64,000 bases of DNA from Trypethelium eluteriae (lineage: Eukaryota): assembly GCA_051942245.1 (NCBI GenBank), contig JAVECL010000001.1, forward strand, positions 1-64,000. The letters run 5' to 3'. The position numbers were made by a program, and so were the translations under genes. Below, one piece after another: positions 1 to 12,190 of this stretch. Below the pieces are notes generated by a model. The model was not told the origin of the DNA. It ran no database searches and saw nothing but the letters and a program-made list of their open reading frames with translations. Position 1 is the first letter of the stretch. Every line of letters starts with the position of its first letter.

Positions 1-356
1 AAATTTGGAGCGATTTGGACAAGGTTAAAAGCAAAGGACCCTACCAAAGGACCCTACCCCCTGTCGTGCTAACCCTAACCCTATTTTGCTAACAAAAGCA
101 AAGGACCCTTATAAGAGTCCTTCGCCCCATATAGGTTAGAAAGTCTACCCCCGTCCCTAGCGCGGATATTGCCACCATCCAACCCCCGCCTTATAGCCAT
201 CTATCCACCTGCTCCTATCAATCCACCACCCCCGCGTAATAATATCCACATGCCAGCTCCGCTATAACTGCTTTACATTATGCCCAGCTTTTACAATATA
301 CCACCCCTCTCCATCCCTCTATTAATTATTAAGTCTGCTAATAACATATCCCTACT

Positions 357-853
357 TGTTACGAACGCTCCTAACCAAGGACGCGTTGGAGGTAGCCACT
401 ACTTATAGTGCACCAATCGCGTAACACCGAGCGCGTCTCGCAACAGGAGTAAGCAAGGACGTGGCACGGACACCTCGACCATCTCGCAGCAAGATGAGCG
501 AGATCTCACCTCGCAGAGAGCGAGACGACATCTCGCCCTTCTCGCTGCGACACCAGCGAGAAGGAAGGTTGTAGTGGAGAAGGAATGAATATTTAAGGAA
601 CCAAGTTTTAAGCACACTCTTATTCTTCTCCTTGCGTTTTATTACTTTACTGTATTATACTAAAACTGTATCTATAATTAGTTATAAGCTAAATTAAACA
701 AGTCCTTATTTATTACTAAATTGTTCAAAGCTTAGTGACCCTTCTTACATCATTGGATCCTTGACACTCCGCTCTTACGTGAAAAAAACCCTAAGACCCT
801 TCTACGTACCTGCTACAAGCTGTGCTTATACCAGGGGGTATAGGCTTATAACA
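357..853 (+). repeat. 5' LTR
   Basis: Starts TGTTACG and ends ATAACA; aligns without gaps to 6540-7036. Confidence 0.96.
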
Positions 854-872
854 CAATAAAACACCCTCAAGG

Positions 873-2609
873 ATGAGTTAATCAGGATCTACTCCACAGC
901 CGGAGTCCCGCACCGAAGCCCCATCAAAGGAAGGTAAGGTGGGATAACCTGATAAGTACTTTGGGGAAAGAAGCAAGTTGGAAGAGTGGCTATGCTAAAT
1001 CCAACTCCACTTCTTATTTAAAAGAATTCTAGATAATTAATAGACCTTGGTAGCCTTATCATACTTAAGAGGATAGGCCCAGCACTGGATAAAACCCAAA
1101 TTAATTTTATATCTTAACAACTTAGAGGACCCTAACAGTTTTTTTACAAGATTCCCTTAATTTAAAAAAGAGCTTAAACAAATTTTTGGGATTTTTAATA
1201 AGGTTAAGATAGCGGAGTGAGCAATTTAGAACCTAGTACAAAAAACTTTAATAGCGGATTACGCAGCCAAATTCTAAAAGTATTCCAATAAACTGGAATA
1301 GAACAATAAAGCATTACAACCTATGTACTAGAGAGGACTTAAGGATGATGTTAAGAATGAGCTAATGCGCTACAGCGGCTTTATTAACATGTTGCAAGAA
1401 CTTATTAATGCCTTAATTAAATTAGACAATAAGCTTTACGCAAGGCGTATAGAAAGGTGATTAGCCCCATACATTCCAGCAGGAAGAATGGGAGGAATTA
1501 CTTAATATTATAATAATAATAAACTAATAGAAGGAGTTTAATACTCCAACCTTGCGCAAAGCAAGAAGGAAAGAGGTGCCTAAACCAAAAGAAAGTGCTA
1601 TACTTATGGAAAACCAGGGCATATAACAAGAAACTGCCAATCCAAGAATAAGGTAGATCGCAGGGAAGAATTTAATATGGCAACCTAAGTCCACCTAGGA
1701 GAAGATAAGATTATTATTAATAAACTAATAAGTAATAATAATACTAGGAACTTAGATGTTTTTTAGTATTAAATATTTAACAATAAATCCAACGCAGAGG
1801 AAAGTACTTTATGGGAAAAAGTTACAAACCCTGTGAACAGCTAAGAGGACCTACTAGAAGTTACTTACAGTATCCAAGGAGAGGTAGCAACGCAAAAGAA
1901 GCATGAGGATTATGTGCACTTAATGTCAAAAATAGAAGATTACCCAGATCATAAAATCCTAGGAAGATGTGTAATGCAAAACTGCAAAATCCATTGTGCT
2001 TATGTTGCAACACACCCCAAACTCCTAACAACTATATGGAATTTAGAATAACGGAATTTTAGATACTGGAAGGAGGTCTATGGACTCTTACAGCATCCCG
2101 ACCATAATCGGATAACCGGATGGGAGCAATATTAAGACAATGCGTGTAAAAAGCATTAATAGGACAAGGAACAGAATAAAAAGAGGTTATGATACTAATT
2201 TCAGCATTTTACTAAATGCGGGCTTAAGGATTATGCATTCTACTAAGAATAGGAAAGCGAGCACAGTTAACTAAGCGAAAAGTTCTGTAAAGAAAAGGAG
2301 ACCTGCCCATACCACAGACCAGGTAATAGTGTAGCTTAAAGAAGGAGCAGATCCGAACAGGGATTATATCCAAAACCACCCTATAAACTGTCTGTGTGTA
2401 AAATAATAAACTGGCTGAAATGTGTTAGCATTATGTGTGTTAAACACCGCCAAAAGCAAGCGGACTATTGTGCGAAATATTAATGTAATAACCTAAATTG
2501 CTACAAACATCGCCTAAGTTATAAGGATATAAAACCAGAATAGCAAGCCTGCCATAACACCGCTAAGAAGATAAATAATAAAAAGGGAAAAATTAACAAC
2601 TTCTTATAA
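873..2609 (+). pseudogene. gag: Retrotransposon gag with an extended Cys/His-rich C-terminal region, RIP-inactivated
   Basis: ATG at 873. Capsid-like PDKYFGERSKLEEWL and ALSYLRG*AQHW. Zinc knuckle CYT(Y/C)GKPGHITRNC at 1596. The same frame runs to about 2609 with many RIP stops. Confidence 0.85.
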
Positions 2610-5600
2610 AGGGGTTATAAGCAAGTTATAATATAACATCCCCTAGCAAAGCAATGACAGGATTGTTTAAAATTAAGGTTAAGATTAAGAACTAACAGGT
2701 TAAAGCAATAATTAATAGTAATGCATTAGTAAACATAATAGCAGCAATAACCACTAAAAAGATTGGACTTAACACTAGGGAAAAGGAAAAGCTATACAGT
2801 TTATATGGAGCTACTGGACTATAACTTGCAGAACAAGGATAGGTGGATACTAAGACGGAACTTATTTTTATGACTACGCAAGGGCACACTAAGGAAATCC
2901 AATTTGATATTATAAATCTAATTAGGTATAATATTATACTTGGATTACCATGGTTACAAAATTATAACCCGGATATTAATTGGGAAACAGGGGAAATTAC
3001 GTTCTTTAGGTGCAAACACGGCATTGCACGGGACCCTAGAGGAGCAGAGAATTGCTCTAGGGATAAGATAAGGACAAGCTATAGTGTAGCTTTAATGTCG
3101 ACAAATAAAAATGATTAAGAAGGACAAACTGGATCCGGCGTATCTGACACTTTAATAAAGGTAGAAGGTTAATTAAGGGATAACATAGAGCGTAAGGACG
3201 CTGAACTTATGACGATACCTCTTAAATATAAAGAGTATTTGCCACTCTTCAAGAAAGGGAGGGCAGACTAAGCACTGCCTCCGCACTAACTGTGGGACTA
3301 TAAAATAAAATTAGAGTTAGGGAAGCAACCCACTTTTAGACCTTTATATCCCCAGTCACAGAGAGAACTAAAGACGCTTTAAGAATGGCTAAGAGAAAAC
3401 CTTAGGAAGGGATTTATCCGAAAATTAGAGTCTTTAGTAGGATACCCCATACTTTTTATTCCTAAGAAGAATGGCAAACTGCAATTATATGTTAATTACT
3501 AAAAACTTAATGCTATTATGGTTAAAAATAGGTATCCGTTACCTAATGCGGCAGAACTGAGAGACCGCCTAACCAGAGCAAAGTGGCTTATATTATTAGA
3601 TCAGAGAGATGCTTATAATTCCATCCGCATGAAGGAAGGTGAGGAATAGAAAACTGCATTTAGAACAAGATACGGACTATTTAAATCCTTAGTAATGCTG
3701 TTTGGACTAACAAACGCACCTGCGACCTGTTAGGAATAAATCAATAACGCATTACAACTATATTTAAACATCTTTATGATTGTATATCTTAATGATATAC
3801 TGATTTATTCTAAAATAAAGGAAGAATATGTAAAACATGTAAAGATGGTATTAGAATGTTTAAGGAAAAGGAATCTTAAATTATTATTAGAGAAGTGTAT
3901 CTTCCACTAAGAACAAGTAATATTCTTAGGATATATGGTAAGAAAAGATTAGATTTAAATAAAACCAGGAAAGGTATAATTAGTTTTAACATAGCCGGAG
4001 CCAACAAATATTAAGGGGGTTTAAAGTTTCTTGGGATTTACAAACTTTAACCAACAGTTCATCCTTAAATATTCTAAAAAAGCAAAACCACTTACGGACC
4101 TTATAAAGGGTAAGCAATTATTTAAATAGGAATAGCCACAAAAAAGAGCCTTTAAAGTTATTAAAAATAAGATTATAAAAAACCTAGAACTGATAATCTG
4201 CAACCCAAAGTTACTACTAAAGCTTAAGACGGATGCTTCAGATTTTATAATAAGCGCCTGCTTATTACAATGGGTAGATGGGAAGTAGAGACTGATAGGA
4301 TACTACTTAAGAAAAATGACTCCTGCTGAACTAAATTACAACATCTATGACAAAGAATTGCTGGCAATAATAGCAGCAATGGAGCACTGGAGAGCGTACA
4401 TAGAAGGAACACCCAAGCTAGACGTTTATACCAACCATAAGAATCTGTTAACATTTATAACAATAAAACAGTTAAATTAAAGATAAGTTAGATGGGCAGA
4501 ACTCCTTAGACAATATAAGTTTACTATATATTACGCACCAGGAAAGGAAAATGGAAAAGTAGACGCTTTAAGTTAATAAGAAGACTATTAAGGAAATAAA
4601 AAAGTGTACTAAGCAGTGTTTAAAGAAAAGAATAACAGCACTCTTAAAAGCATTTCCTAAGAGTTTGGATTAATTCTTAACATCTTAAAAGATAAGGATG
4701 AACAGTTCCCTATTGTTACTTAAAAATTACGGGTTCTGAATAATAAAGTTAACCATTATATTCAAAGATATTATAATAAACCGCGATATGGACATCCTAG
4801 AGCTGTACAGACACTTAGGAATATATCTCAAAACTGCATTTTTGATGATATAAAGCAGAAAGCCCAAAGCTATGTGGAAAAATATGATTATTGCAAAAGA
4901 AATAAGCACAGTACCCAAAAAAAAAAAGGCACCATCCAACCAATTTAAGCACTAACAAGGCCTTAGGAGCAGATCACAATGGACTTTATCACAGACTTAC
5001 CTGCGTCAAAGCACCCAGTAACCGGAGAAGTCTACACAGCAATCTACGTGATAGTATGCAGACTGACAAAGTATACAATACTAATTTTATTTAGCAAGAA
5101 ATATGGAATAAAAAAAACAGCATGGATACTCTTCAAAAGAGCGATATCATACTTTAGATTACCTATCTTAATAATATCAGACTGAGATAGAAGGTTTATA
5201 GCCAAATTCTTCCAAATGTTAATGGCAAACTTAGGGACTAAAGCCAAGCTATTAACAGCATATCACAAGGAGACTGACAGACAAACTAAATGGATAAACT
5301 AATTACTGGAATAATTCTTAAGACACTACATTAGTAATCTATAAGATAATTGGGTATTGTTATTACCTATAGCATAATTGTATATTAATACAAGAGAATC
5401 CAGTACAATAAAGTTCGCGCCTATTTAAGGGCTAATAAGATATATACCACCATTAGTTTAACCAATACCTATTGGAATAACATTAGCATTAGGGGAAGAG
5501 CATGGAAAAATAATAAAATGAATACATAATAAAATAGCCAGGAATATTAATAAAAAAAACCAGAGTTTAATTAAAAACAACAAAAAAGTAAATAGACCTT

Positions 5601-6019
5601 AATTAAAGGAGGGGGATAAAGTATATTTACTTACAAAAAACTTAAAAACAAAAAGACCTTACAAGAAGCTTAGCGCGGTAAAGGTCAGTCCATTTATTAT
5701 TAAAGAAAGAAAAAATAAGGTTAATTATAAGTTAAACCTTCCATAGGACGCTTAAGTTCACCCGGTGTTTTATTTATCCCTATTAAAGTTAGCAGATAAA
5801 AACACACTATGTGCAGAAATATTTAGGTATAAATTAGAGGAAGAACACAAGTTTAAAGTAGAAAAAATCCTGCAAAAGAAAAATAAAAAATATTTGGTAA
5901 AGTGGAAAGGATACCCAAACTCGGAAAACACTTAGGAGATGGGAGAAATACTGTCCAAGTGTGGAGAAAAAATATAACAATATCTAAGTTTAAGAGAAAA
6001 AGGAAAAACCTACCTATAA
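2585..6019 (+). pseudogene. pol: Retrotransposon pol (protease, RT, RNase H, integrase, chromodomain), RIP-inactivated
   Basis: All motifs lie in one frame: VKAIINS (from AMIDSG) at 2699, MLFGLTNAPAT, YLND (from YLDD) at 3785, TDASD at about 4229, MDFITDLP at 4979, and FKVEKIL...YLVKWKGY at about 5852-5914. Confidence 0.93.
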
Positions 6020-6461
6020 TAACCATATTTTTAATACCAGCAAAAGTTTCCCATAATAAGGGAGAAAGACCAATAATAGCGGCAGCGGCAGGATAGTTAT
6101 CCTTACTAACCGCACCCTTGTTAAGCTTATTAAGAGCATGTTTAGTTTTCCGTTTTATATATTCCTTAGCTTAATAAAAAATCTTTTTATAACGCATGAG
6201 GTAAGCAAGCACTTTGGCAAGCTCTTCCTCATCCTCTAACACTCTTTTAGCATATTCCTCTTAAGTGCGATTAAGAGAAGACCACAATAAGTTTACACAC
6301 AGTTTCCCTATTTTCACATACTCAGAACACTTAGCATAAAACTCCATAGCAATATAGACACAACCACAAAGGAGGCAAAGGTTATAAGGCGATGGAACCA
6401 GAAGACCAAAGTTTTCAATCTCTAAGGACAAGCAGTAGCGATAAAGTTTGGAGGAAGACAT
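6010..6461 (-). pseudogene. Antisense accessory ORF of the retrotransposon: Zn(II)2Cys6-like motif plus coiled coil, RIP-mutated
   Basis: ATG at 6461. Restoring three TAT codons to TGT gives C-x2-C-x6-C-x8-C-x2-C-x6-C. This is followed by the helical EEYAKRVLEDEEELAKVLAYLMRYKK. The 3' end is approximate. Confidence 0.7.
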
Positions 6462-6522
6462 CTTGCTAAATGGATGGAAGCAGGGTCACTCCTACTTATG
6501 TTCCACGTAAGGACACGTGACT

Positions 6523-6535
6523 AAGGAGGAGGGGG
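6523..6535 (+). other. Polypurine tract (plus-strand primer)
   Basis: AAGGAGGAGGGGG ending 4 nt before the 3' LTR. Confidence 0.85.
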
Positions 6536-6539
6536 CTAA

Positions 6540-7036
6540 TGTTACAAACGCTCCTAACCAAGGACGTGTTGGAGGTAGCCACTACTTGTAGTGCACCAAT
6601 CGCGTAACACCGAGCGCGTCTCACAACAGGAGTAAGCAAGGACGTGGCACGGACACCTCGACCATCTCGCAGCGAGATGAGCGAGATCTCACCTCGCAGA
6701 GAGCGAGACGACATCTCGCCCTTCTCGCTACAACACCAGCGAGAAGGAAGGTTGTAGTGGAGAAGGAATGAATATTTAAGGAACCAAGTTCCAAGCACAC
6801 TCTCATTCTTCTCCTTGCGTTTTATTACTTTACTGTATCATACCAAAACTGTATCTACAGTTAGTTACGAGCCAAATTGAACAAGTCCTTATTTATTACC
6901 AAATTGTTCAAAGCTTAGTGACCCTTCTTACATCATTGGATCCTTGACACTCCGCTCCTACGTGAAAAAAACCCTGAGACCCTTCTACGTACCTGCTACA
7001 AGCTGTGCTTGTACCAGGGGGTATAGGCTCATAACA
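6540..7036 (+). repeat. 3' LTR
   Basis: Starts TGTTACA and ends ATAACA; followed by the TSD CTACT. Confidence 0.96.
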
Positions 7037-10000
7037 CTACTGCTGTCTTATATCTTATACCATCCTCACACCACAATACTGTATATTAAATATTCGCTTA
7101 AATTATACTTACCCAAATATATTATGCACACCGGATGTGTATATTATTACCCAACTCTTTTTCTAACACCAGCAGAAGTATTGCCATTAGCAGTACCAGC
7201 AGACATCCCAGCACCTAAAGCTGCTTTAGCTCCGCCAGCTTCTATTATTACTTGCTTGCGGTAAAAATTAAATAACACTTATTAATAACCACCCATCGCA
7301 GTAGCTGCTTATGCTGTAACACACGCGCATACCCCAAAAATCTATTGTCCCCAGTAATATCCGCACTAACAACCACCACCGCCGCCGGATCCGTTTATCC
7401 GTACTGCCACTTAATTGCCTTAATCCCAGCTCCTGCCAGCTGCTATAATAAATCCCTAATTAATACTTAAAATAGGACTATTACCACTATAACCCCAGCA
7501 TCCGCTAATTATGCTAGCACCATAAATAATAAGCTTTTTCCTCCCCCTGTTAGTAAAATAACTATAAGCGGCATTACCCCAGTAATAACTGCCCGGATTG
7601 CTTAACTTTATTCCACTGATTTAAACTGCGCATCCGGACCACCCAGTACTTACTGCAGTGCCTGCTGTATTACTATATCTGTGTGTTTAATCCGTTTAAC
7701 TTATTTATTGTAGCAATCCGAATTAATTAGGGGTTCGGTTATGTTGTACAGTTGTTAATTCCTAATGCGTCCTTTATTAATCCCTTCCGCCCTCTGCTTA
7801 GTATCTACTCCCACTTTTATCTATTCCTCTTTTTTAATTTTCATACCGCTATTCTTCTTTACTGTTATTCTTATTTACTTAATTCCCAGCCCAGTTATTT
7901 AATTTTAAATCTCTCACCTTAGCTTTTATTATTAATCCCAGTTTATAATAAGCCCTAAAAACTGATGCTATTATTTACTTAACAGCCAAAAAACCTTAAT
8001 TAATTGCTTACTTAAATATTTAATAATATCAACCGGAATACTGTAATTATTAATCCCAATCTGTGTTATACAAGCACTCTGCAACTCCAGCACACTCTTA
8101 CCCTCTTCTTTTTCCACTTTAGCTTCTTCCCTTTCTCCAATATTATCCTAATACCCCTAACTAAATTACTCCCCTACTATCCGCTGTTTAATACTTACAG
8201 CAACATATTAATAATCTAGTGTTATTAATATCACCCCCAACCGCTTTGCTGTTTTGTGCTTAATAATATATATTATACAACCCATATCCTATAGGCCCCG
8301 CTTATCAGCCCATATATAATTATAATCCCTACTGGTTTTACCCAATACTTATACTTGGAGATATTCTACCCACTGCTGCACATATGCTAAATAAATTACT
8401 ATTATATGCCCTAGCTGTACCGGCAAAAAACAGGGCATAATCTTTGGTTTGTCCCATTGTGACTATAATTTATAATACCGGATTACAGTTATTACTTACC
8501 CATTTACCACAAAAATATTACAATCCTATAAAAAGCTATTGCAATGCCACATTATTATAATTTCAGTCCCCTATGCCGGTTGTCTGGATGTAATGTGTAT
8601 GCTTATAAGCAGCTATTTTAGCTACTGCTTAACTTAACATAAGTATCGCCATACATCTTATTGCTTCTACTGCCCACCTTATAACCGCATGTCTTATCCA
8701 GTCAGACTTCTTAATATCTATTCTAGCATTTACTTTAGCCCCCCCTTAAGTTAATTTCCAGCTTGGTTAACTATTAAGACTCCTTGCTATGTGAATGTAA
8801 TATTATTAACTAACTGCTCCATTAGAATAATAAACCGCATTATACAGTCTGTTACCCATATTAATTTTTCCCAAAAATTATCTTCTACTTTATGCACAAG
8901 ATTTTGTGCTATTTATTAAAACTATTAAATTATAATTAGTTATCTATAAATGTAAAACTATTTGCCATCTTATAACCATTGCGTTTGCCCTGCGTTATTA
9001 ATATTCAATCTAATAGCTTTGCCATATGCGAGTAGACTAAGCATTTTGCTTATCAGACTGTACAACCCGTTAATTAAGTATTGTTTATGTTTATTTAAAA
9101 AGTACGCCCATTGTTTATCTCCCTGCTACTCTTATTTACTTAACAGCAGCAAAATCTTAACAGCAACTACCCGCACATAGTAGACCACACCAGCAAGTAT
9201 GTATAAATAGCTTTTTGCTGTCCGCAGTTAATCCATCTCTCTATTAATCCCAAGAATAGCTAAAAAATAAATTAATCTACTTATAAATAGGTTATCCCCA
9301 GTTATTATTAAAATAAATAACTGCAGCACTGCAAAGAAACTGCTAATATGCTCCTATTTATTTGCTTTATCTAACCGCTGCCATAGTAAAGTTACCAACT
9401 TTTTTTATGCTCCTTACCACAGAAATATCTTACAGGCATCTTAAAAGTAATCCAGTCTCTTATCCTCCCAGTAAGAACCAGCATAAGTAAGACTAACATT
9501 AAAACCAGAACCAGATTTATTATTACTTATTTTATTACTTTTACTCTCTTCCTTGCTGTGCTCTTTATTGCTATTATTTTATTATTATTACTCCCACTCT
9601 TCTTTATTCTAAATAATCCGGAGTGTATAATAGACAAATATAATAAGATACCCAGTATATTATTGCTGACTCTTAATATTCTACAGTCGCGCTAACAGCC
9701 GTTAATCAACCTCTTCGCGCTTCGCACTCCGCAGCCAGCGCCGCGTTTCTTAAGCCAATATCAACAATCCTCAGACCCCCTGCTCCACTGCCCGCTTAAC
9801 TGCTTAAGCCGCTTATTGTAGCTTAGTTTTATTCTTTTTTAGGAGCCAGATTGCAGCAGCTAGATATCAACAGTTTCGGTTTGCCAGATGTGACAGCCAA
9901 CCTGTTTAATTATACCAGCCAGTTTGGTTATTTTTAGCCACTTTTACATCAACCACCTATGCCTCTTACTCCACTCATTCTTGTGTGCTCTTCCATTCAT

Positions 10001-10849
10001 CCAAAAGAGAATCAATAGTTGCTTGCTGCTTAGATAGTGCACTAATGTGACTTGCTTAAACAGTAAAGTATTACCGCTGTGCACCCGCTTGAAAAAACAT
10101 CTATAAAGAAACTTGTTTAAAGTAGCTATCCACATCCTTTTTACACCACAATAAGCAGTGTTTTTGTTTTTAATATATCCGTAGCGCGTCTTAATTAACC
10201 ATTAGATAATCACACATTATGACGGTATAGTAAAACCCTTCCAACAGCAGACCTAGTACCAAAAATGGCGGGCACATTAGCGGCGGCTAATCCACTTCCT
10301 TGGGCTTTTTAATCTATTAATAATAGTATTTCTTAATAAGTGCTGTCTATACGTTAATTAGGAGTGTGTAATGGTTGCGGAGATGTGTTTATAAATTCTT
10401 AATTATAGTTGCATATTGCCAACAGATAAGAATATAATATCGCTAGAGATAATAAAGCTGCTGTTCAGCCTCTTCTATAATAACAGTACATTTGGGGGCG
10501 GTTGCTGCTGCTTATTATTATTTTAATATTCCTCTTACTGCGGCGGTCACAGTTTGTGCATTCCAGCAGAACTTTATTACTACAGTTATGAGAATCTCTT
10601 ACACTCTTCTTCCACGCTTCTATTTCTGTAATTTAAAACAGAAATCAGGTTCTCCTAAATTGTGCGACGCAATTAATACTATGTTTGCCTCCAGTAACCG
10701 GGGTGGAAAAGTGAATGAATAAACCCTACGGACACCGCGAAAGAACCCCTTGGGCCCGCCCGAACGGGTCTAGCGATACCCCAACCCTAGCCCGATCGGG
10801 ACGAATCATGGTTCGTTCGTGCGATCCTCTCGGATAGGGTATTCTTAAG

Positions 10850-12190
10850 TACTTATTATATAATTTTATAAAAAAAAATAAGTTTTAATATAAAAAATAT
10901 TAAAAGGGTAGAATACCTAAAAAATTGGATTTAAAAAGAAATTTTATAAATTAAAATTATATATAATAATTAAAAAAGCTTCCTTTAATTTTACTCTTAT
11001 ATTATATATAAAAAAGTTACTTATTTTAAGTATTATAAAAAGGTAAAAGCTATGAGCTTAAGGGGGTATATAATTAGGTATTTATATTATATAAAAATAA
11101 AAAAAAATATATTTATAAATAAAGAAGATATTATACATACCTATAAAGAGAGTAATTAGTATTATATAAATATAAAAAGATTTATATAAAGGTTTCCTAA
11201 AGCATTATTAAAAATAAATAGGTATAATTACCCACCCTTAATAAGCTCTAATATAAAATAACTCCATAAGTAATTCTGCAAATTAGGAATCCTTATTATT
11301 CCCCTTATTATCCTTCTTAGGATTTATATAATTAGGCCTATTATCTTTAGAGGAATCTTTATTTAAAAATAAAGAAAGAGGGGATAAAGGTGCTTATACA
11401 TAATAATTATAACGCAGAGCATAATCCCACTATTTGCAATTAGCGCACGCCCCTCCAAAATAGCCTTATATATAGCAATATTTTAAAAAGGGAGTAAAAC
11501 CATATTATATGTATTTATTACACGCAGTTGCCTCTTATTATCCTTTACTCTGGATTAAAAGCATATTTATTATTAAGGGCTGGGCTTTTGCTATTTACTT
11601 AGGAGTAATACTAATTTATACTTATCATATAAAAAGGATATCAACCCCTAGCATTATAAGCACAGTTAGGCCCTAAGGGTTGTAAGTCAGTAGCGCAAGC
11701 TGTTGTCCTCTAATACCAAAAATAGGAGCAGGGCCCGGACGGAAAAAAAAAGCAGTAAGGACAGCAGCAACAGGGGGGGCAGGAGCAGCAAAAGCAGCAG
11801 GAGCAGCCCTATCATACAAAGGAAGTTAGCAAAATTATTTTAAGAAGCATTATACAAAATAAAAAATACTTACATTATTGTTATTATTATTATTGTTATT
11901 CTATATAATATTAGCGTATATTCTTATTATATAAAGTTTTGTTTAAGGGTTTATCTAAAGCTTTAAACTCATAAGTTGGAGGCAGCAGTAATGGTAATTA
12001 TTAATCTATAATATTTGTTAGCTAATTAATGCTTAAAAAGGTCTTATTTACCTAATTTAGCAAGCTTTATACAAAGCTAGGGCTAAAACATACCGCTGCT
12101 GTTTATAAAGAGAAGAAGAAGTAGATTGGATCGGCTATGTGGAATTTTAATTTTAAACACGCACAGCTAGACTGTTTTAGGGTTAGTACA
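10850..12190 (-). mobile_element. Heavily RIP-degraded repeat relic containing a DUF3716-like Cys-rich coding remnant
   Basis: Extremely AT- and TpA-rich. The minus strand at about 11410-11560 reads IQSKG..ACNKY..GFTPFLKYC..GYFGGACANCK*WDY, resembling the DUF3716 pattern. Element class and ends are not resolvable. Confidence 0.55.

Follow-up and report, generated by a model that had tools for sequence, protein, structure and literature searches.

A RIP-inactivated antisense accessory gene with a zinc-cluster-like cysteine module in a Ty3/gypsy chromovirus of Trypethelium eluteriae

Positions 1 to 64,000 of contig JAVECL010000001.1 from Trypethelium eluteriae (assembly GCA_051942245.1; the whole of this stretch is the window in what follows) contain, at 357-7036, a Ty3/gypsy chromovirus, that is, a long terminal repeat (LTR) retrotransposon, degraded by repeat-induced point mutation (RIP). 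On its minus strand, the open reading frame (ORF) at 6012-6461 is, judged against its relatives, the RIP-killed copy of a genuine, conserved gene that the element carries. It is an inactivated accessory gene of an ascomycete chromovirus clade, and we consider it reasonably probable that the intact gene specifies a small Gal4-like zinc-cluster regulator from an antisense transcript. The original prediction had proposed an antisense Zn(II)2Cys6 and coiled-coil frame between the pol gene and the 3' LTR of a retrotransposon; the nature of the host element and the place and orientation of the frame are borne out by the LTRs, by tblastn and by Pfam.

The minus-strand frame opens with an ATG at 6461-6459, and its codons 25-56 (6389-6294) read PYNLCLLCGCVYIAMEFYAKCSEYVKIGKLCV, just as had been claimed. 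Tyr26 (6386-6384), Tyr36 (6356-6354) and Tyr48 (6320-6318) are each encoded by TAT, and with these three residues restored to Cys, the stretch spells C-x2-C-x6-C-x8-C-x2-C-x6-C. The parts of the frame are the following:

6012..6461, minus strand: antisense accessory ORF inactivated by RIP; 150 codons, with family homology reaching to Trp137
6297..6386, minus strand: six-Cys region, codons 26-55, in which three of the six Cys are now TAT (Tyr)
6261..6263, minus strand: in-frame TAA, codon 67; 96% of relatives have Arg here
6171..6173, minus strand: in-frame TAA, codon 97; 94% of relatives have Gln here
6051..6098, minus strand: conserved C-terminal motif, DCPAAD..VG.SPAxW in relatives, with its Cys here Tyr (TAT)

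The uninterrupted ATG-initiated ORF spans only 66 codons (6461-6261). To reach the length of about 150 aa first assigned to the gene, two TAA codons have to be read through; in relatives the ORF is conserved at ~165-178 aa. Position 6010, given as the 3' end, is not where the frame closes: after codon 97 it is open down to 5856, and the next in-frame stop is at 5855-5853. As there is no stop after Trp137, and as C>T and G>A changes are unable to remove stops, the comparison suggests that the ancestral ORF ran into the end of pol, like those of loci L003 and L005 described below. At codon 123, a fourth conserved Cys has turned to TAT. With two stops, four of eight conserved Cys now Tyr, and gag and pol ridden with stops, the window copy is dead, and the gene in the window is a relic without a function of its own.

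Could such a frame be fortuitous? We scanned the six frames of the 64-kb window for stop-free occurrences of [CY]-x2-[CY]-x6-[CY]-x5-12-[CY]-x2-[CY]-x6-8-[CY] and found one, at 6297..6386; the strict Cys form of the pattern has no occurrence in the same six frames. Of 1000 second-order Markov sequences as long as the internal region (5685 nt), 7 contained the relaxed pattern, or ~0.007 per element; among 3000 of spacer length (521 nt), 1-2 did. These figures are generous, because the pattern was defined after it had been sighted. This, together with the commonness of Tyr codons in RIPed DNA, is what speaks for a chance open frame with a chance Cys/Tyr pattern in an AT-rich, RIPed spacer, a reading to which we give practically no credence: the pattern has no second occurrence in the window, relatives show selection on the frame, and homologues exist, which refutes the chance reading and settles the matter independently of the simulations.

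The homologues form a large family. A phmmer search against 1.84 billion representative proteins returned 56 proteins at E<=1e-3, 17 of them at E<=1e-10, and a profile built from 12 close members returned 287 proteins at E<=1e-3. All 56 phmmer matches are at most 263 aa long, so there is no long fused form at the sensitivity of phmmer. A word-indexed search gave no match with the RIPed window sequence and 12 proteins with the family alignment; a scan of viral contigs gave no relative. Names were taken from the best 120 of the 287 profile matches, and the named members among the matches listed are all Ascomycota (Cercospora, Periconia, Elsinoe, Sporormia, Pyrenophora, Xanthoria, Variospora and Candelina). 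The members from Cercospora kikuchii, Elsinoe australis, Sporormia fimetaria, Pyrenophora tritici-repentis, Xanthoria, Variospora and Candelina are labelled 'hypothetical protein'; P. tritici-repentis has several, on up to 19 contigs, and the UniRef name of one Periconia record starts 'Zn(2)-C6 fungal-type doma'. The nearest ESM Atlas clusters are likewise unnamed Ascomycota 'hypothetical protein' clusters, and the N-terminal part alone reached scores of at most 0.83 there, with no Pfam family. Hardly any member has a name other than hypothetical protein, and the majority were recovered from metagenome, JGI or Logan assemblies, not from annotated genomes, so the family has been largely missed by genome annotation.

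Across 78 aligned members, Cys1 to Cys6 are kept in 77, 77, 76, 78, 78 and 78 sequences, respectively. Tyr26, Tyr36 and Tyr48 of the window align with Cys1, Cys3 and Cys5, so the relatives carry Cys (77, 76 and 78 of 78) exactly where the window's TAT codons had been taken for lost cysteines; at the two stops they carry Arg and Gln, and the ORF is conserved. The gap between Cys3 and Cys4 varies from 7 to 13 residues (within 5-12 in 75 of 78 members) and holds an invariant Met (78/78; position 40 of P0003). Two further Cys outside the six are conserved in 75 and 73 of the 78 members. The linker and the tail have a median of 0 Lys or Arg each, with a median of 6 and 4 Asp or Glu, respectively. 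Some database proteins, P0004, P0007 and P0016 among them, start at the invariant Met and lack the first cysteine half; these short members are either gene-calling artefacts or products of an internal start.

The same alignment allows the damage in the window copy to be read. There are 57 conserved columns, that is, columns in which one residue is kept in at least 80% of members, and the window copy retains 37 of them. Of the 20 that changed, C>T/G>A changes alone can account for 15 and the opposite changes for 1, which upholds the view of the Tyr codons as RIP products. The element has a TpA/ApT ratio of 1.24-1.67 vs 0.65 in genic DNA, and in the DNA run X1, which yielded 15,030 short, diverged pieces of the family, 1289 of 1319 variant places are transitions (80% likeness).

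The genomic setting of the gene is as constant as its cysteines. We scanned metagenome contigs with a narrower family alignment, the broad one being too diverse for a locus scan, and recovered eight loci, in all of which the integrase/chromodomain end of a pol gene lies on the opposite strand just downstream of the ORF. The expectation that homologues would be antisense and 3' of pol thus holds for 8 of 8 loci:

L001: ORF end overlaps the pol end by ~68 nt
L002: ORF end overlaps the pol end by 4 nt
L003: ORF end overlaps the pol end by ~198 nt
L004: ORF end overlaps the pol end by ~92 nt
L005: ORF end overlaps the pol end by ~161 nt
L006: gap of ~151 nt between ORF end and pol end
L007: ORF end overlaps the pol end by ~68 nt
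L008: decayed copy, with pol pieces on the minus strand

The ORF is intact in 7 of the 8, at 167-178 aa. In three (L001, L002 and L007), the opposite strand upstream of the ORF shows a gap of LTR size followed by an intact gag, and in L002 and L007, pol also follows gag; these three contigs would be assemblies closed through a single LTR.

Divergence among the intact copies falls mainly on silent sites. Over 140 aligned codons of the antisense ORF, pN is 0.15-0.32 vs a pS of 0.60-0.86; dN/dS, the test suggested for relatives spared by RIP, is 0.10-0.20 in 9 of 15 pairs, the other 6 being saturated in dS, and when these columns are shifted to the +1 and +2 frames, the values are 0.94-2.56. The antisense gene is under purifying selection. 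It is on this point that an RNA-based explanation can be weighed, in which the antisense RNA itself is the product, acting as a regulator or forming double-stranded RNA with the end of pol, while the ORF would be a mere by-product. In its favour, retroelements commonly produce antisense transcripts, and a tail-to-tail overlap with pol, of ~4-198 nt, is seen in 6 of 7 intact loci. We nevertheless hold this to be very improbable: selection acts strongly on the ORF frame and not on the shifted ones, 7 of 8 ORFs are intact despite saturated synonymous divergence, the Cys residues are invariant, and most of the ORF lies outside pol.

What kind of protein the gene encodes is less settled. Zn2Cys6 domains follow the consensus C-x2-C-x6-C-x5-12-C-x2-C-x6-8-C, and typical Gal4-type domains have a basic run between Cys2 and Cys3 and a proline before Cys4. 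An AlphaFold 2 (AF2) model built from the 78-sequence alignment (mean predicted local distance difference test score, pLDDT, of 83) has helices at 4-19, 28-32, 49-54 and 63-118. The short helices 28-32 and 49-54 come directly after the first and fourth Cys, and the 56-residue helix 63-118 follows the cysteines, where an amphipathic helix had been foreseen. Against 350,542 PDB chains, the best Foldseek rows for this model are Gal4 (1d66), Put3 (1zme and 1ajy) and Pho7 (6e33), followed by Leu3, Hap1, Ppr1 and 1cld, and VIA superposes its core on zinc-cluster chains with an rmsd of 1.4-1.9 Å over 32-35 residues. Spacing and modelled local shape thus fit a Gal4-type cluster, which makes such a cluster likely, short of an established membership; of the GAL4-type assignment first proposed, the spacing stands, and the fold matches are to the right family at values that are not significant.

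Several results weigh against a Gal4-type identity, and we set them out together. The window translation matches no Pfam family, and the Zn_clus scan that had been proposed as a check yields 4 of 78 relatives at E<=0.01, with the 21-bit gathering cut-off reached by one (P0205, 21.4 bits). Other families, DUF3716 and Bunya_G1 among them, score as weakly: DUF3716 (PF12511) also has 4 of 78 members at E<=0.01, reaches 18.2 bits at best and never its cut-off of 22, and its weak matches cover the N-terminal helix and the first Cys half. The family profile, run against PDB sequences, finds no solved Zn2Cys6 chain at E<=10, only coiled-coil noise. The zinc-cluster rows of Foldseek have E-values of 1.2-9.4, none significant; the VIA Z-scores against zinc-cluster chains are 2.0-3.7, and two long-helix chains outscore them. 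An AF2 model of the first 69 residues alone, from 7 sequences, has a pLDDT of 66 and mostly unrelated fold matches, Pho7 ranking 11th and Leu3 50th. Finally, the family has neither the basic run between Cys2 and Cys3 nor the Pro before Cys4.

The predicted dimer adds a further difficulty. A two-copy model of residues 1-125 scores 0.44 vs 0.00 for the best of three controls; its runs share at least 80% of contacts, with a partner pLDDT of at least 76. In a benchmark, 21 of 30 proteins known as solved pairs and none of 23 solved as single chains attained the dimer mark; for eukaryotic proteins, the corresponding counts are 17 of 29 and 0 of 30, with 1 of 7 among pairs that have no older solved relative. 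The touching residues in the model (77 with 91-98, 87 with 87 and 70 with 98) have numbers that sum to ~171, so the helices run antiparallel there, in contrast to the parallel coiled coils of Gal4, Ppr1 and Put3.

From these observations, a real gene whose product does not bind DNA sequence-specifically can also be drawn. Its cysteine module would be a scaffold of a generic kind, built on zinc or disulphides, and its helix dimer would serve protein or RNA contacts in particle assembly, nuclear entry, chromodomain-aided integration targeting or the blunting of host silencing. We regard this as possible, at clearly lesser probability than a Gal4-like regulator. It would account for the 77 of 78 members that fail the Zn_clus cut-off, for the lack of a solved relative by sequence, for the two extra conserved Cys and for the basic residues missing from what is typically the DNA-contacting stretch; in addition, the modelled antiparallel dimer would separate the two modules by ~56 helical residues, and the weak similarity to DUF3716 is to a domain of unknown function that, in the passage describing it, occurs in proteins of a fungal DNA transposon (PMC8232023). 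What it explains less well is that both the Cys spacing and the placing of a short helix behind each CxxC are Zn2Cys6 traits, that the best structural neighbours among all chains searched are almost all Zn2Cys6 DNA-binding domains, and that the acidic, aromatic tail would resemble an activation region.

Returning to the zinc-cluster regulator that we prefer, we propose the following set of principles for the intact gene and its product: (i) The gene occupies, on the antisense strand, the interval from the pol end to the polypurine tract and 3' LTR, often overlapping pol tail to tail, and its protein would be made from its own antisense transcript. (ii) The product, of ~165-178 aa, would have an N-terminal helix and six near-invariant Cys in the arrangement C-x2-C-x6-C-x7-13-C-x2-C-x6-C. 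(iii) The ~56-residue helix that follows would pair two copies, and is succeeded in the proposed layout by an acidic linker and an acidic and aromatic tail (DCPAAD..SPAxW). (iv) The design would then be Gal4-like, with a DNA-binding module, a dimerising helix and an acidic tail. (v) The target of the protein is probably nucleic acid of the element itself; most likely, it would bind LTR DNA and so tune the element's transcription.

The region between the ORF and the LTR bears on how such a transcript might start. The start ATG lies 78 nt from the LTR edge, and from that edge one meets, on the ORF strand, first the complement of the polypurine tract, then a hairpin and then a TATA-like box:

6523..6535, plus strand: polypurine tract AAGGAGGAGGGGG
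6504..6519, no strand assigned: hairpin beside the polypurine tract, with a covarying stem and the conserved loop TCCT (ORF strand)
6493..6500, minus strand: TATA-like box CATAAGTA, beginning 39 nt upstream of the ATG; putative function

A similar TATA-like box is found in 4 of 7 relatives and is less clear in the other 3. The box of the window sits in the internal spacer, outside the LTR, so an LTR-internal promoter is not needed; the promoter within the 3' LTR that had been suggested for the antisense gene is not required and stands as a candidate only. The hairpin has a stem of 6-7 pairs with at most one mismatch that differs in sequence in 7 of 8 elements (CACGTG, CGCGATG, AGTCTCG, CCGCTAG, GACTTG, GGATACG and TTAGCCG), and a loop that is kept (TCCT, TCC or TCT when read on the ORF strand, and AGGA-type on that of the element). 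The stems were listed sequence by sequence, a pair count over a single alignment being unsuitable as loop lengths differ. The hairpin looks like a selected RNA or DNA structure, and it could serve in plus-strand priming, form the 5' end of the antisense mRNA or be a site for a protein.

The LTRs themselves hold arrays of a short motif, upstream of a TATA-like AATATTTAAGG:

436..561, no strand assigned: array of 7 TCTCGC/GCGAGA motifs in both orientations over ~125 bp, in U3 of the 5' LTR
6665-6744, no strand assigned: array of 7 TCTCGC/GCGAGA motifs, likewise in both orientations, in the 3' LTR

The two arrays hold 14 of the window's 37 TCTCGC/GCGAGA matches. In L001, L002 and L007, the LTRs carry comparable arrays built from different hexamers (GTGATC-, GCTCAC- and CGTGAG-type) ahead of TATATAG boxes, and such arrays may be enhancers or factor-binding arrays. 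A bolder form of the proposal, in which the protein is a miniature Gal4 transactivator that recognises its own LTR, for instance the hexamer arrays, and each lineage has a matched pair of factor and site, is one that we think rather unlikely; if true, it would be a fungal counterpart of retroviral self-regulation of the Tax/HBZ type.

The remaining landmarks of the element that carries the gene are these:

352..356, no strand assigned: 5' target-site duplication CTACT, with an identical copy at 7037-7041
357..853, plus strand: 5' LTR, 497 bp, TGTTA...TAACA, 95.4% identical to the 3' LTR
948..1679, plus strand: gag remnant with many stops and a CCHC knuckle (tblastn with L002 gag, 36% identity, E 3e-37)
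2705..6022, plus strand: pol remnant with protease, reverse transcriptase, RNase H, integrase and chromodomain, ending in a double stop at 6017-6022
6540..7036, plus strand: 3' LTR, 497 bp, direct repeat of 357-853
7037..7041, no strand assigned: 3' target-site duplication CTACT, matching 352..356

The two LTRs differ at 23 positions, every one a transition. In tblastn, the pol remnant shows 39-40% identity to the pol of L002 and L007 over ~870-890 aa; its reading frames are full of stops, and the Pfam Chromo domain (PF00385) is found in it at 5765-5932 (E 1.4e-6). Gag and pol of the window are colinear with the intact gag and pol of L001, L002 and L007 at 36-56% identity, and Pfam identifies RVT_1, RT_RNaseH, Integrase_H2C2, rve and SH3_Tf2-1 in L002. 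The antisense frame fills the 0.5-kb spacer from the pol end to the polypurine tract. Repeat comparison and tblastn found no second copy of the element within the 64-kb window. In X1, one or two short contigs join the left flank to the right flank without the element and share 5 letters at the joint (sides of 21-30 letters at 80% likeness, compared with window positions 351-357 and 7037-7043); they could be an empty site or a repeat artefact, and are too weak to call.

Beyond the element, 7038-12000 is AT-rich (GC 0.29-0.38), with RIP-like indices (TpA/ApT 1.24) and a strong negative GC skew to ~10000; it has no match to the gypsy gag and pol queries used and is probably the relic of another repeat. 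The rest, 12000-64000, is ordinary fungal gene space, so that the retrotransposon lies at the edge of a gene-rich block. Pfam identifies there RCC1 repeats, a v-SNARE, Dsc3, Fe-S biosynthesis, a carboxylesterase, two sugar transporters, DUF726, GH76, a short-chain dehydrogenase and Pex14.

Other additional genes that run antisense in the interval from pol to the 3' LTR are on record from Botrytis (brtn, 2011) and from plants. What the present family adds is its size (at least 287 proteins), its purifying selection and a recognisable design, which makes an accessory ORF testable as a case of an element carrying its own nucleic-acid-binding regulator. Our literature search found no paper that connects fungal LTR retrotransposons with a zinc cluster or with an antisense ORF, and a broader one led to brtn. 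In passages that cite Zhao et al. 2011, brtn is 'the additional antisense gene' of Boty-like elements in Botrytis and Sclerotinia (PMC7264820, PMC8365987, PMC4227169, PMC5987419). Compared by these descriptions only, brtn resembles the window gene as an extra antisense gene between pol and the 3' LTR of an ascomycete chromodomain gypsy element. The hosts differ, being Leotiomycetes for brtn and Dothideomycetes and lichen fungi for the named members here; the citing passages mention no zinc cluster or coiled coil, and the name BRTN is absent among the best 120 of the 287 profile matches and in the cluster look-ups of 30 matches.

The review passage that mentions brtn groups it with plant antisense ORFs between pol and the 3' LTR, those of Grande1, RIRE2, Retand and PvRetro13, described there as conserved within families and of unknown function (PMC7264820). 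As far as these descriptions go, position and orientation are like those of the window gene; the plant elements belong to non-chromovirus lineages, and the passages mention no zinc-cluster design. A figure legend also marks an 'add. ORF ... with unknown function' in some fungal elements (PMC2864245). DUF3716, to which the family has its sub-threshold matches, is likewise transposon-borne in fungi, being present, in the passage concerned, in REP9-1 and REP9-2 of a Zymoseptoria tritici DNA transposon (PMC8232023).

The Gal4-type factors (Gal4, Ppr1, Put3, Leu3, Hap1 and Pho7; PF00172) share with the family the Cys spacing and, in the model, the short helix after each CxxC and a following helix, which in the family is predicted to pair. 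They differ in that the family has a predicted helix of 56 residues, in antiparallel pairing in the model, in a whole protein of ~170 aa, and in that its gene is borne by a transposon and is not part of a host regulon. HBZ of human T-cell leukemia virus type 1 (HTLV-1) is an antisense-encoded basic leucine zipper (bZIP) factor expressed from the 3' LTR. It has a bZIP fold, a host from another kingdom and no homology to the family; the likeness would be one of logic only, in that both may be retroelement-encoded, antisense, dimerising helix-type nuclear factors whose genes lie by the 3' LTR.

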